Assembly (NCBI RefSeq): GCF_006345805.1
Contig: NC_043000.1
Span: forward strand, 106,826,001 to 106,890,000
Reading direction: 5' to 3'
DNA length: 64,000 nucleotides
From: Octopus sinensis
Lineage: Eukaryota
Position 1 is the first letter of the stretch. Every line of letters begins with the position of its first letter. The notes below the pieces were generated by a model. It was not told the origin of the DNA and made no database searches. It saw nothing but the letters and a program-made list of their open reading frames with translations. The translations under genes were made by a program, and so were the position numbers. Shown one piece after another: positions 251 to 61,125 of this stretch.

Positions 251-710
251 ATTATTTACATTATTTACATTTGACAGATATTTGTCCTCATCTTGTTTGT
301 TGTTAACACAACGTTTCGGCTTATATACTCTCCAGCCTTCATCAGGTGTCTTGGGGAATGAAAATCCAATTCTCATTCCTAAAGTATTTTTCGATGTTGT
401 TATTATTATTATTATTATTATTATTATTATTATTATTATTATTGTTGTTGTTGTTGTTGTTGTTGTTGTTGATGTTGTTGTTATTATTATTCAGGTCACT
501 GCCTGGAATCGAACTCGTAGTGGTTAAGAGCGCTGGCTATTAACCCCAAGATTCCGAGTTCGATTCCAGGCAGTGACCTGAATAATAACAACAACAACAA
601 CAATAATAATAATAATAATAATAATAATAATAATAATAACACCGAAACGTTGTGTTATCAACAAACAAGATGAGGGCAAATATCTGTCAAATGTAAATAA
701 TGTAAATAAT
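251..710. mobile_element. Fold-back (head-to-head) pair of a tRNA-headed, hammerhead-containing SINE-like element
   Basis: 251-319 is the near-exact reverse complement of 642-710, and 481-517 mirrors about 555-595. The centre has an A-box-like TAGTGGTTAAGAGC and B-box GAGTTCGATTCC, followed by an (AAC/AAT)n spacer and a (TGTAAATAA)2 tail. Confidence 0.8.
305..350 (-). ncRNA. Minimal type I hammerhead ribozyme
   Basis: Minus strand reads GACAC CTGATGA AGGCT-GGAGAGTATATA-AGCC GAAAC GTT GTGTT: intact core, stems I and II, self-complementary AACGTT at stem III. Confidence 0.75.
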
Positions 711-764
711 GTGCATTAATTTTATTAGAATAATGAACATTAACACAATTTCATCGTCATTGTT

Positions 765-1210
765 AAGGCGTTGAACTAGCAGAACTGTTAGAGCGTCGAA
801 CAAAGTGCCTCGCAGTATTTGTTGCAACTCGTTGCATTCTGAGTTCAATTTCCGTTATGGTCGAGCTTTACCTTTCCCCCCTTTTGGGTTCGATGTAATA
901 GGTACCAGTTGAACACTGCGGTCGATGTAATCGCCTAGTCCATTCCCCTAAAAATTTCAGGCCTTGTACCTATCTATAAAAGAAAGGATTATTTGAGTGA
1001 TGAGCCAGCAGCATCATCACTGCATCAGACAAAATATTTAGCAGCATTACTCCAGGTTCTTTACGTCCTGGGTTCGAATGTCGCCGAGGTCGACTTTGAC
1101 TTTCGTTCATTCGATGTCGGTAAAATAAATACCAGTCAAGTACTGAGGTCGACGATATTGACTAACTCCTCTCCTCTTAAAATTGCTGGTTTCGTGCCAA
1201 AATCAGAAAG
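765..1210 (+). mobile_element. Two diverged copies of tRNA-derived SINE family S1
   Basis: Degenerate matches to the S1 head (...gagttcaattt.ccg) and central gtcgactttg.ctttc.t.c.ttcg..gtcg.taaa...taccagt. Confidence 0.65.
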
Positions 1211-1228
1211 TTGCTATTATTATATTTA

Positions 1229-1648
1229 ATTCTTTATTGCCCACAAGGGACTAAACATAGAGGGACAAGTAAGGACAGACAAATGTATTAAGTTGATTAC
1301 ATCGACCCCAGTGCGTAACTGGTACTTATTTAATCGACCCCGAAAGGATGAAAGGCAAAGTTAACCTCGGCGGAATTTGAACTCAGAACGTAGCGACAGA
1401 CGAAACACCTATTTCTATTTCTTTAACACACACAAGGGGCTAAACACAGAGAGGACAAACAAGGACAGACAAACGGATTAAGTCGATTACATCGACCCCT
1501 GTGTGTAACTGGTACTTAATTTATCGACCCCGAAAGGATGAAAGGCAAAGTCGATCTCGGCGGAATTTGAGCTCAAAACGTAACGGCAGACGAAATACGG
1601 CTACGCATTTCGCCCGACGTGCTAACGATTCTGCCAGCTCGCCGCCTT
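1229..1648 (-). mobile_element. SINE family S1, one head plus two tandem body units
   Basis: Minus-strand head ggcggcgagctggcagaa...gagttcaaattcc; body gtcgactttgcctttcatcctttcggggtcgataaattaagtaccagtt occurs twice. Confidence 0.85.
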
Positions 1649-2274
1649 ACTAATATTATTATATTGCCACTTTGACTTTCATCCTTTCGGGATCGATAAA
1701 ATATAATGACAAATCCGATTCTGAGTTGGATTCGTCTCTTTGTCTAACTATCTTTCCATCTGTTTTTTTCTTTCGTTCTGGGAGAAATAGACTGTGACGA
1801 GGAATGATCTAAAATGATCAAGACACTACTTATATCACGAACGGTATTCCTATGACACCATCAAAGTGCTAAGATCCTATGCCAAAGATTGACAGAACTA
1901 ATTTTCATTTTATAAATAGATATCGCAATTAACATTCGTATGCTAATAAGAAACGACACTACACTAGAAATGCAGGCTTCCGACAAAAGATCAAATAACA
2001 CAGGCTATTAGACCAAAGTGTTTCACACAAAAGTGTTTAGATCAAAGCATTTTAGGTCTAAGTTCTTTAATATATCCAGATCTCTCAAAATTTTCACAGC
2101 CATGCGACTTCCTAAAGTGGAAGAGCGTCTTCGGAAACTGAAAGATGTTTGAGAAAATAACATCGTGTTCACATAATTTAGGTGTTTAATGAGTTGAAAA
2201 CTTCACTTTTATAATCAAGATAATAAAGGTTAGTGACTTCAATGGAGTCTGTTTCTGCTTGCAGAGAGCCTTTA

Positions 2275-2842
2275 TATTGGTTTCAAATTTTTGTGCGAGA
2301 CCAAAAACCTCGGAGGAGGGAGTAAGTCGATTACATCTACCCCAAAACTCAAATGGTACTTATTTTATCGACCCCAAAAGGATGAAAGGCAAAGTCGACC
2401 TTGGCGGAATTTGAACTCAGACGGTAAAGACAGACGAAATACCTATTTCTTCACTATCCACAAGGGGTTAAACACAGAGAGGACAAATAAGGACAGATAA
2501 AGGGATTAAGTCGATTATATCGACTCCAGTGCGTAACTGGTACTTATTTAATCGACCCCGAAAGGATGAAAGGCAAATCGACCTCGGCGAAATTTGAACT
2601 CAGAACGTAACGGCAGACGAAATACCTATTTCTTTACTACCCACAAGGGGACAAACAAGGACACAGACGGATTAAGTCGATTATACCGACCCCAGGGCAT
2701 AACTGGTACTTAATTTATCGACCCCAAAAGGATGAAAGGCAAAGTCGACCTCGGCGGAATTTGAACTCACAACCTAACGGCAGACGAAATACCGCTAAGC
2801 ATTTCGCCCGGCGTGCTAACGTTTCTGCCAGCTCGCCGCCTT
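2275..2842 (-). mobile_element. SINE family S1, one head plus three tandem body units
   Basis: Three copies of gaaaggatgaaaggcaaagtcgacctcggcggaatttgaactcag; single head at about 2790-2842. Confidence 0.85.
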
Positions 2843-2899
2843 AGGGAACCTTGATATTTGTGAAGTGCTTGTAACCTAATATCAGCTTCTATATTTAGG

Positions 2900-59425: not shown

Positions 59426-59429
59426 ATAT

Positions 59430-59720
59430 ATGCATATGTGGGCAAAGGACGTCATGAAACGTGTACAACAGAAAAATCGAAGTACAAGTACATGGAATAT
59501 GAACTGTTTTTACGAACAACGAAAGGCACAAATGGAAAACAAGAGAAACAACATAAAGAACGACCCTTCATTAGTTGTTGGCTGTACTTCTACTCTCGCA
59601 TTTTGAGCATTCAATAACAACGTTGTTATTAAATTCCTTGTACTCGTTATTCCAGGTTACTCGTACTGCGCATTTTTTGGTTGTAACCCGTTTTATGACG
59701 TCCTTCGCCCACATATGCAT
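59430..59720. mobile_element. Short element with long imperfect terminal inverted repeats in (TA)n
   Basis: atgcatatgtgggcaaaggacgtcatgaaacg... versus ...cgttttatgacgtccttcgcccacatatgcat. Confidence 0.7.
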
Positions 59721-59983
59721 ATATATATATATAGATATATATATATATATATATATATATATTATATATATATATTCATCTCTCTCTATATAATGCCTCG
59801 GATTTTACCGAAAAAAGCATAGTGTTTACTGATTTTAACCCACGTTGGTGGAAAGGGGAGAGCAGAAATTCTTCGCTTGCATTTTTGAGTTGTTGGCACT
59901 GTTAGTTACGAGCAGATCTTCAGAAGCGATAAGAAGCCGAAAGGGTATGCTCCCACTTTCAGTGTTTTCAAATCCAAACCAGG

Positions 59984-60040
59984 GAGTTCTGATGATGATA
60001 AGAAATGTCGAGTTTGACTAATCTTGAAACGTACGTTCTC
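59984..60040 (+). ncRNA. Degenerate hammerhead motif
   Basis: GAGTT CTGATGA TGAT...ATCTT GAAAC GTAC GTT CTC; palindromic GTAC loop, stem I' shortened. Confidence 0.5.
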
Positions 60041-60384
60041 AAATAACCTTTGCATTTGATTTTTAATGTCTCTACCCCCAGATTTTCGTGAGTGAATTGA
60101 GCAAAGACTATATGAGAGAGGTTTTCTTTAAGTATTAGAAATAGTTTTTAAAAAAGTTTTTTAGCTGCTATTTCTAATGAGTTCAGTATGCGGCAAAGTA
60201 ATTATTTTACTAAGCCCTTTTATATAATGTAATAATTTGAATTCGCCTTAAATGGTCCCTTTGCATACTGAATACTGGTGAAATGATTAATTAATTAATT
60301 TTACCCTCAATTGTTGAAATATATATATATATATATATATATATATATATATATATATATATATATATATATATATATATATAT

Positions 60385-60625
60385 AATTCGAGACAAAACC
60401 ACTATTTTAAAACCAAACAAGAAAAGACTTAATCAATACATAAAATTTTAATATAAATTATTTATTTAATTATATTTAAATTTTATGTATTGATTAAGTC
60501 TTTTTTGTTTGGTTTTAAAATAGTGGTTTTGTCTCGATTTTATATTAATAATATTTTACTATAAAATTGGATTTAACCCTAAATCTGATTTTTCCCTGTA
60601 ATTTTGGATTCATTCCCTAATATTT
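60385..60625. mobile_element. Family A copy, fold-back and lacking the HHR
   Basis: cgagacaaaaccactattttaaaaccaaacaa... mirrored by ...ttgtttggttttaaaatagtggttttgtctcg; tail ...ttccctaatattt as at about 11720 and 44385. Confidence 0.8.
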
Positions 60626-60908
60626 ATATATATATATATATATATATATATATATATATATTATATATATATATATATATATATATATATACATATACAT
60701 ATATATATATTTTCGTATAGATGTATGTACATATGTGTATGTATATATGTGTATGTATATATGCATATATATACATATATATATATGGATGGATGATATA
60801 TATATATATATATATATGGATGGATGATATATATATATATTGGTAAAACGGTAAGATAACAAAAGAAAGAAAGAGACCTCAATATTATGTAAATAGAGGA
60901 AATTTATC

Positions 60909-61125
60909 TATACAATTATATGTTACATTACTCGATAGTCAAGATAAAACTCTGAGTTTCAGATGCCGAAGTGGGAATCCACGACATCTCTTCGGTTATC
61001 TGGCTATTTGAAAACCCTATTTTCAAATAGCCAGATAACCGAAGAGATGTCGTGGATTCCCACTTCGGCATCTGAAACTCAGAGTTTTATCTTGACTATC
61101 GAGTAATGTAACATATAATTGTATA
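60909..61125. mobile_element. Perfect palindrome with 106-bp arms and a hammerhead motif in each arm
   Basis: 60909-61014 is the exact reverse complement of 61020-61125, loop CCCTA; + HHR 61034-61091 GATAA CCGAAGA GATGTCG...CGGCATCT GAAAC TCAGA GTT TTATC. Confidence 0.9.

Follow-up and report, generated by a model that had tools for sequence, protein, structure and literature searches.

A 64,000-nt stretch of the Octopus sinensis genome (contig NC_043000.1, positions 106,826,001 to 106,890,000; hereafter the window, whose own numbering is used throughout) holds six intact-core and about 11 decayed loci of the type I hammerhead ribozyme (HHR), drawn from 14 lineages. We consider it likely that these loci are the footprints of insertion by Penelope-like elements (PLEs), comprising short PLE 3' ends and at least one non-autonomous retrozyme of 350 nt that would use PLE proteins. 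The basis for this reading is an enrichment of the motif, a 3' polarity of (TA)n, inverted 5' pieces, a head-to-tail unit of 350/353 nt, covariation, and a remnant of a PLE endonuclease. The surrounding DNA is AT-rich (∼34% GC), with 108 tandem-repeat rows, ∼20 copies resembling a short interspersed element (SINE) and transposase remnants, and by its look it reads as non-coding animal DNA.

Hammerhead motifs exceed the number expected by chance

An earlier note on this DNA had placed HHRs at 16 coordinates. We read both strands at each of them and graded the motifs by hand: all 16 carry a type I HHR or a relic of one, giving 18 claimed motifs, each on one strand (a motif is named below by one position within it). 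Two of the 18 are fully intact, 345(-) and 15389(+), and three, 6762(-), 44615(-) and 45435(+), keep an intact core with a weakened helix II or III. Seven have a single core substitution: U16.1>G at 9299, G8>A at 11875, G5>U at 14977, A15.1>U at 42607, and U4>C at 46983, 61039 and 60995. Three have at least two core changes (11462, 28600 and 46955), and three are truncated or out of register (37163, 49964 and 59989). The CUGANGA / GAAA / UH core with type I helix order is complete at 345 and 15389; the core is intact at six loci, and 13 of the 18 claimed motifs lack the full arrangement. Beyond these motifs we found one extra strict match, 44003(-), and one truncated half, 10990(-). Core-like matches at 63734 and 49565 were rejected, as they lie inside coding remnants.

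The strict descriptor allowed no core mismatch and demanded a helix I of at least 4 bp, a helix II score of at least 3 and a near-palindromic helix III; the control consisted of 60 local dinucleotide shuffles in 250-nt blocks, plus the reversed window. The window gives six strict matches (the five intact-core motifs and 44003(-)), compared with 0.05±0.22 in the shuffles (maximum 1). When one core mismatch is allowed there are 14 matches, compared with 1.43±1.24 (maximum 5), and three of the 14 (33118, 10241 and 10335) are probably due to chance. The reversed window gives none. Thus the enrichment is real, and the excess over shuffled sequence that the earlier note proposed to look for is present in the window. 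The strict matches correspond to 94/Mb (95% interval 34–204), in a window that was selected for HHRs. The claim of a dense ribozyme population is therefore upheld as an enrichment (6 versus 0.05) but overstates the intact copies, 13 of the 18 being core-damaged or truncated: the "∼15 ribozymes" are really two to six plausible ribozymes plus relics, and because most copies have decayed, "population of ribozymes" overstates function.

In a sub-region scan, the Rfam model Hammerhead_1 (RF00163) matches 15383–15427 over its full length (32.2 bits, E = 5e-06), just below the gathering score of 34. Rfam on the whole window returned microRNA-like hairpins and similar structures, with no HHR among the matches listed (150 of 180), and a local scan of 230–720 gave no HHR family, so none at 345.

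Comparison of the flanks of 17 loci (136 pairs) links 6762, 15389 and 28600 in one family and 11462 and 44615 in another, and leaves 12 singletons, hence 14 lineages. The stems, described earlier as unrelated, are mostly so, except within these two shared families. The description "minimal" likewise holds in part: 345 has all the traits of the minimal HHRs of PLEs, but the 6762/15389/28600 family does not qualify, 15389 fitting the full-length Rfam model. The reported self-complementary stem III was recovered as TCGA at 15389, GATC at 44615, CTAG at 6762, ATAT at 14977 and GTAC at 59989.

A 350-nt retrozyme unit and its family

The intact HHR at 15389 lies within a retrozyme-like insertion that has two further family copies in the window:

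15224–15573 (+): retrozyme-like unit, 350 nt, non-coding, 42.9% GC, highly structured.
15383–15427 (+): intact canonical type I HHR with a 6-bp helix I, a 4-bp helix II and a ACUCGAGU helix III; predicted cut after C15421.
15574–15635 (+): beginning of a second unit that matches 15224–15285 at 62 of 62 bases; (TA)n follows at 15637–15677.
15176–15223 (-): inverted copy of part of the unit (∼15260–15307) at the 5' end of the insertion.
6560–6830 (-): diverged family copy, 63% identical to the 15389 copy; HHR at 6724–6768 with intact core and decayed helix II.
28346–28606 (-): third family copy, strongly decayed; core U3...A8, U16.1>A.

The insert therefore amounts to 350 plus 62 identical bases, or 1.18 units. 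No poly(A) tail and no short target-site duplication were seen at 15176–15677, and the open reading frames (ORFs) scanned that overlap 15224–15573 gave no Pfam match. Helix I of the 15389 HHR is extended by a long rod, and the unit folds far better than its shuffles (z = -6.3 when folded as a circle). The stem covariation among family copies that the earlier note had called for is found: between the 15389 and 6762 copies, 9 of 58 predicted pairs have changed on both sides, and in one diverged contig from public run X19, which has 27 attributed differences, four double changes fall at paired positions versus 0.77 expected (P = 0.004). Three of these four keep the pair and one is register-dependent. 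The core of 28600, U3...A8, reads as the compensatory core of schistosome PLEs, although decay may produce identical letters. An exact 74-bp direct duplication, within 15014–15181, separates the retrozyme insertion from the 14977 HHR element.

Twenty of 23 listed public runs (12 studies, seven organism labels) share 39–64% of the words of 14880–15636, none of them on record as RNA. We compared the contigs of four public runs, X2, X15 and X19 among them, with the unit. The head-to-tail joint 15573→15224 occurs in all four, and a 347-nt variant of the joint in three. One contig of X2, a run that can only be guessed to be RNA, is 383 nt long and forms a self-closing 353-nt unit with few differences. 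In X15, 2,789 contigs fit the unit, with a summed depth of 6e4–1e6 versus 33–54 for the single pieces listed; depth is not a copy number, and we read it only as the sign of an apparently high-copy family. Both CpGs of the HHR vary at their C in X15, by 7.9% at the free position N7 and by 9.7% at C11.1, where a G-U pair is kept, while the catalytic G8 and G12 stay below 4% among the variants listed.

The family thus has a non-coding unit within the 150–450 bp range, with GC below 50% and a type I HHR, a tandem or more-than-unit copy, and a self-paired fold under selection. Two consecutive HHR-bearing units at one locus are not seen here, the window copy having a single HHR; tandems elsewhere are implied by the joint. 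Judged from its sequence, the 15224–15573 family fits a non-LTR (long terminal repeat) retrozyme, and with it the presence of at least one genuinely non-autonomous unit is supported.

Insertion anatomy and the (TA)n microsatellite

Thirteen of 16 loci have a run of (TA)≥5 no more than 300 nt away on the 3' side, compared with 22% of random positions (P ∼1e-6; loci picked by eye), and 7 of 17 have one on the 5' side; 345 has no 3' value in this test. The association with microsatellites claimed in the earlier note therefore holds and is polar, toward the 3' side. Inverted or palindromic anatomy occurs at 345, 10946–12329, 15176, 44615, 46882 and 60913. Published PLE insertions are heavily truncated at the 5' end, form partial tandems, carry an inverted 5' copy and target (TA)n, and an inverted 5' segment, a partial tandem and a microsatellite target are all found here.

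A PLE endonuclease remnant beside a half hammerhead

One locus places an HHR next to PLE coding sequence:

49468–49851 (-): 5'-truncated GIY-YIG endonuclease remnant of a PLE, ∼128 residues, whose full-length relatives have Hydra-clade motifs.
49959–50057 (+): half HHR lacking helix III and the 3' strand of helix I; it sits at the truncated 5' end of the endonuclease remnant, in inverted orientation, and (TA)n cuts it off.

A full HMMER search gave 1,902 relatives of the remnant at E≤0.001; a word-indexed search gave no longer relatives. A weak GIY-YIG match was present in 2 of 10 relatives scanned, and with a profile built from 150 relatives the remnant is the only significant match in the window. 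We read four long relatives (806, 709, 646 and 628 aa): reverse transcriptase (RT) motifs are present in 4/4, CxCX5C or a near form in 4/4, DKT in 3/4 and RW-basic in 2/4. The remnant itself shows CxxC; the other Hydra-clade motifs are seen in the relatives, not in the window. The half-motif at 49964 is the only HHR that adjoins the remnant, in inverted orientation.

Pfam was run on 9 + 140 ORFs (140 of the 177 listed, the rest being SINE-overlapping, scanned earlier or low-complexity). Among these ORFs it gave only Tigger-like DDE_1, CENP-B and HTH pieces (E≤0.007) and no RT. Just downstream of the endonuclease remnant, the ORF at 48901–49308 (-) has no relevant Pfam match; by its motifs we take it to resemble a Tc1/mariner transposase remnant.

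Minimal hammerheads of PLE type and their relics

The remaining single motifs and their surroundings are:

305–350 (-): intact PLE-type minimal HHR with an extra A after A9, G10.1-C11.1 and an ACGU palindromic helix III; predicted cut after 310.
492–580 (no strand): palindromic tRNA-like head with A-box-like and B-box-like words; centre of an inverted arrangement, both arms running from the head through (AAT/AAC)n to the HHR side.
642–689 (+): inverted partial copy of the 345 element, comprising the HHR 3' half and tail but neither the first core box nor helix II; 96% identity to 272–319.
9295–9370 (+): PLE-type HHR relic with a long helix II; U16.1>G.
10946–11729 (no strand): nested inverted structure of the truncated HHR half 10990(-), the decayed HHR 11462(+) of the 44615 family, and the family tail.
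11793–11880 (-): relic of a PLE-type HHR with G8>A; part of it recurs inverted at 12109–12190.
14905–14981 (-): relic of a PLE-type HHR with G5>U; (TA)n lies 38 nt away.
37158–37196 (+): HHR relic with both core boxes; 3' strand of helix I missing.
42545–42690 (+): long hairpin with an HHR relic at its tip; A15.1>U; 36 nt from (TA)n.
43967–44010 (-): extra strict-core match whose helix III is weak; possibly a relic or a chance match.
44568–44621 (-): PLE-type HHR with intact core, ACGAUCGU helix III and a helix II mismatched at its base; an inverted tail piece lies on the 5' side.
45430–45483 (+): PLE-type HHR with intact core; helices II and III imperfect.
59984–60040 (+): HHR relic with ACGUACGU helix III; helix I out of register.

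The traits of the minimal HHRs of PLEs (an extra base between positions 9 and 10.1, G10.1-C11.1, and a palindromic 15.2-16.2 or loop 3) are all present at 345 and partly present at 44615, 14977 and 9299. A long helix II together with a palindromic or once-palindromic helix III characterizes 44615, 14977, 9299, 45435 and 59989. The perfect 8-nt palindromes are predicted to form self-duplexes at -7 to -11 kcal/mol, which agrees with the dimer model. Minimal, small-helix-III HHRs are reportedly the subject of work by Lunse et al. from 2017.

At 243–689 a palindromic tRNA-like head is joined on both arms to (AAT/AAC)n and an HHR body, possibly a tRNA-headed, HHR-tailed SINE. The 345 element thus appears to join a tRNA-like head to an HHR part, at a single locus; ARAGORN found no tRNA gene. 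Sm-alpha, the non-autonomous HHR retroelement of Schistosoma, is of tRNA/Pol III origin. The 345 element seems similar in having a tRNA-like head and an HHR-bearing 3' part; unlike Sm-alpha, it occurs at a single locus, its HHR is of the minimal PLE type and (AAT/AAC)n lies between head and HHR. Elsewhere, 10796–12329 is a nested inverted arrangement of several elements, with outer arms at 10796–10860 and 12264–12329 and three HHR relics inside. Further palindromic elements occur at 10180–10395, 25104–25409, 59432–59718 and 60388–60537, mostly beside (TA)n and with no clear HHR, and 60388–60619 is a tail of the 44615 family.

Two inverted pairs of a U4C variant

Four of the claimed motifs form two inverted pairs:

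46882–47056 (no strand): head-to-head inverted pair of U4C HHR variants (85%) in which helix III is CUC-U-GAG; the + arm leads into (TA)n.
60913–61121 (no strand): near-perfect palindrome (97.6%) with two U4C HHR variants, 61033–61092 (+) and 60942–61001 (-), and a CUC-A-GAG helix III; the + arm reaches (TA)n after 36 nt.

Both pairs have U4C, an unpaired extra base preceding G12 and a helix III of the form CUC-W-GAG, and there is no flank similarity between them. Because both arms of a pair come from one event, U4C counts as two independent cases. The same change is known from a viroid, in which it lowers activity and infection is still possible (PMC3088659). A metagenome scan for the variant, covering at least 120 loci, found a helix I of at least 5 bp in 0/120 and one of 4 bp in two, as expected by chance; the scan therefore neither supports nor refutes a U4C variant class in animals.

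Rfam also matches mir-9 to 60980–61054 (63.2 bits versus a gathering score of 58.6), with 19 of 23 bases equal to the 5' arm of the model. We rejected this candidate: its seed is mismatched and it lies inside the 209-bp palindrome of two HHR copies. The mir-9-like stretch corresponds, on the opposite strand, to helix I and the U4C core, and the match is probably a coincidence; the hairpin could yield small RNAs.

Proposed mechanism and alternative explanations

If the loci are footprints of PLE insertion, active master copies would be transcribed as tandem RNA, which the HHR would cut into units, acting either on its own or in dimers formed by way of the palindromic helix III. The retrozyme unit would be circularized by a host ligase. 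A (TA)n-targeting PLE endonuclease, of Hydra or Neptune type, would nick the microsatellite target, and the PLE RT would copy PLE or retrozyme RNA, going more than one round on the retrozyme to give the 1.18-unit insert; a template switch would produce the inverted 5' piece. Solo copies would then decay, and most HHRs of the window are therefore likely inactive.

Several observations weigh against this picture. Neither an intact PLE nor an RT was found in the window, by Pfam on the ORFs or by the relatives' profile, and no locus links the retrozyme to a given PLE by sequence. The evidence for the retrozyme joint consists of contigs in all four runs, none on record as RNA; the joint is also found in the two largest runs, X15 and X19, whose kind is not on record and which are probably DNA by their size, so tandem DNA alone explains it. 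A rare core change is possible, as the variants listed do not include three others: C>A and T>C in X15 (one each), and a single G>A in X19. In the (TA)n test, for which the loci were chosen by eye, some of the loci have a microsatellite in common, and locus 345 lies in (AAT/AAC)n, not (TA)n.

That most of the 14 lineages are distinct non-autonomous ribozyme retroelement families, still functional, seems doubtful to us. One family, the retrozyme, is plainly a non-coding element of unit length, a tRNA-like head is seen in the 345 element, 42545–42690 is a long HHR-tipped hairpin, and the ORF and profile scans of the window show no coding match beside most HHRs; however, 12 lineages are single, short, truncated pieces of the kind left by 5'-truncated autonomous PLEs, the 49964 half-HHR adjoins a PLE endonuclease remnant, and core damage or truncation affects 13 of the 18 motifs. 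Of the many non-autonomous families proposed in the earlier note, what remains is the large number of lineages, the PLE-type inverted anatomy and one non-autonomous unit; for the remaining 13 lineages, an origin as 5'-truncated 3' ends (pseudo-LTRs, pLTRs) of autonomous PLEs is an equally good or better explanation.

The spread of the 350-nt unit could also be seen as that of a satellite or minisatellite at the DNA level, through unequal crossover or rolling-circle DNA, with a vestigial HHR. The presence of the joint in X15 and X19, and runs with the unit of which none is on record as RNA, would fit such an origin, which we nevertheless find improbable in view of the covariation in RNA structure, the low variation at G8 and G12, the scatter of three copies over 64 kb, and ends consisting of a PLE-type inverted piece and (TA)n. 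We give little credence to mobilization by a non-PLE long interspersed element (LINE), such as CR1 or RTE, that shares only the microsatellite habitat: the more-than-unit length, the inverted 5' piece and the direct contact with (TA)n follow the PLE pattern, and 15176–15677 has neither a poly(A) tail nor a short target-site duplication, against which stand a LINE-like ORF at 63284–64000 and a literature that describes the mobilizer of animal retrozymes as open. Chance matching in AT-rich, repeat-rich DNA is refuted for the set as a whole by the strict count (6 versus 0.05) and the empty reversed window; the Hammerhead_1 match at E 5e-06 on the sub-region and the covariation also speak against it. 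Chance may account for individual matches (33118, 10241, 10335, perhaps 44003 and 37163), in keeping with ∼1.4 relaxed matches per window in the shuffles and with the lack of an HHR among the whole-window Rfam matches listed (150 of 180); as an explanation of the HHRs in general its probability is next to nil. PLE insertion is the reading we prefer.

Relation to known systems

Metazoan non-LTR retrozymes are 150–450 bp long, with GC below 50%, a type I HHR and a self-paired structure, and mussel units measure ∼350–390 bp (Cervera & de la Pena 2020, PMC7229834). The window family resembles them (PMC7229834; Li, Clavereau & Pollet 2026, bioRxiv 10.64898/2026.07.22.740005) in its non-coding unit of 350/353 nt with GC below 50% and a canonical type I HHR, as well as in its self-paired fold, head-to-tail junction and dispersed near-monomers. 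Unlike the published retrozymes, it is a different sequence family, not found in the literature searched; its window copy spans 1.18 units, has a single HHR, and ends in a PLE-type inverted piece at the 5' side and in (TA)n at the other. Because it has one HHR, that copy is not "active" by the two-HHR rule of Li et al. Retrozyme transcripts are described as self-cleaving and as circularized most likely by tRNA ligase, with PLEs the favored, unproven mobilizer. The 2026 preprint ties vertebrate retrozymes to PLE pLTRs and observed cleavage in only one of nine dimers tested.

The PLE-type motifs are similar to the pseudo-LTR HHRs of Cervera & de la Pena (2014, PMC4209133) in the extra base after A9, G10.1-C11.1, long helix II, helix I of 4–5 bp and palindromic helix III (345, 44615, 14977 and 9299), and also in the predominance of solo copies, opposite-strand dual copies 100–700 bp apart and many heterogeneous families per genome; the U3-A8 core variant of that study is read at 28600. 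Solo and opposite-strand dual minimal HHRs have been attributed to truncated PLEs, 5' truncation being the usual fate of a PLE. Two features differ from PMC4209133: the local density here is above published genome averages, in a selected window and with differing descriptors, and the two inverted pairs combine a U4C core with a 9-nt pseudo-palindromic helix III, a form absent from the PLE descriptions in its available text.

Full-length relatives of the 49468–49851 remnant share RW-basic, DKT, CxCX5C and a near-end CxxC with the Hydra clade of PLEs with a C-terminal endonuclease (EN+; Craig et al. 2021, PMC8557442). This clade reportedly carries HHRs, inserts in (TA)n and occurs in molluscs (PMC8557442). 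Compared with it, the window holds ∼128 residues and no RT, and the tentative assignment to this clade comes from the motifs of the relatives.

Other repeats in the window

About 20 copies of one SINE-like family, often partial tandems, lie at 764–2843, 16899–18343, 26085–27674, 31104–31459 and elsewhere; we presume it to be an octopus SINE. A broken Tigger/pogo-like transposase occupies 31899–33319 (-), with DDE_1, HTH_Tnp_Tc5 and CENP-B_N matches. A ∼450-bp repeat is present in three copies of 88–96% identity (20542–20987, 45802–46286 and 56586–57045). At 63284–64000 (+) a 239-codon open frame without a Pfam match runs off the window; by its motifs we take it to resemble the 3' part of a CR1-type LINE.

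Significance

Dense, multi-family type I HHRs tied to PLEs or retrozymes have been published for corals, mussels, schistosomes, fish and amphibians, with over 6,000 type I HHRs, belonging to 16 families, in the coral Acropora millepora, ∼5,000 in Mytilus, ∼9,000 minimal HHRs in Xenopus and 126,247 motifs in the 28.21 Gb of the axolotl (∼4.5/Mb). Because multi-family abundance has already been published, the finding as the earlier note framed it is not new. For cephalopods, the only HHR report we found is that of 235 Rfam hammerhead-1 matches in the giant squid genome; an octopus repeat annotation describes active Penelope-like families and leaves ribozymes unmentioned in its main text. The literature searched, mostly outside subscription papers, gave no account of the window retrozyme family or of cephalopod retrozymes.

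What the window adds is a well-defined 353-nt retrozyme family, absent from the literature searched, and a single insertion (inverted 5' piece, 1.18 units, (TA)n) that supports mobilization by PLEs, still a hypothesis in the literature. A further addition is a local density of 94/Mb (34–204) above published averages such as the ∼4.5/Mb of the axolotl, in a selected window and with differing descriptors. A bolder picture is speculative, and we think it rather unlikely: this would be the most HHR-dense animal genome yet (∼100 intact cores/Mb), in which a (TA)n-targeting Hydra-type PLE moves a canonical 353-nt circular-RNA retrozyme, nearly unchanged across several species, and in which a variant class with U4C, an extra base before G12 and CUC-W-GAG exists in at least two unrelated families. 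If true, it would offer a direct handle on what moves animal retrozymes.

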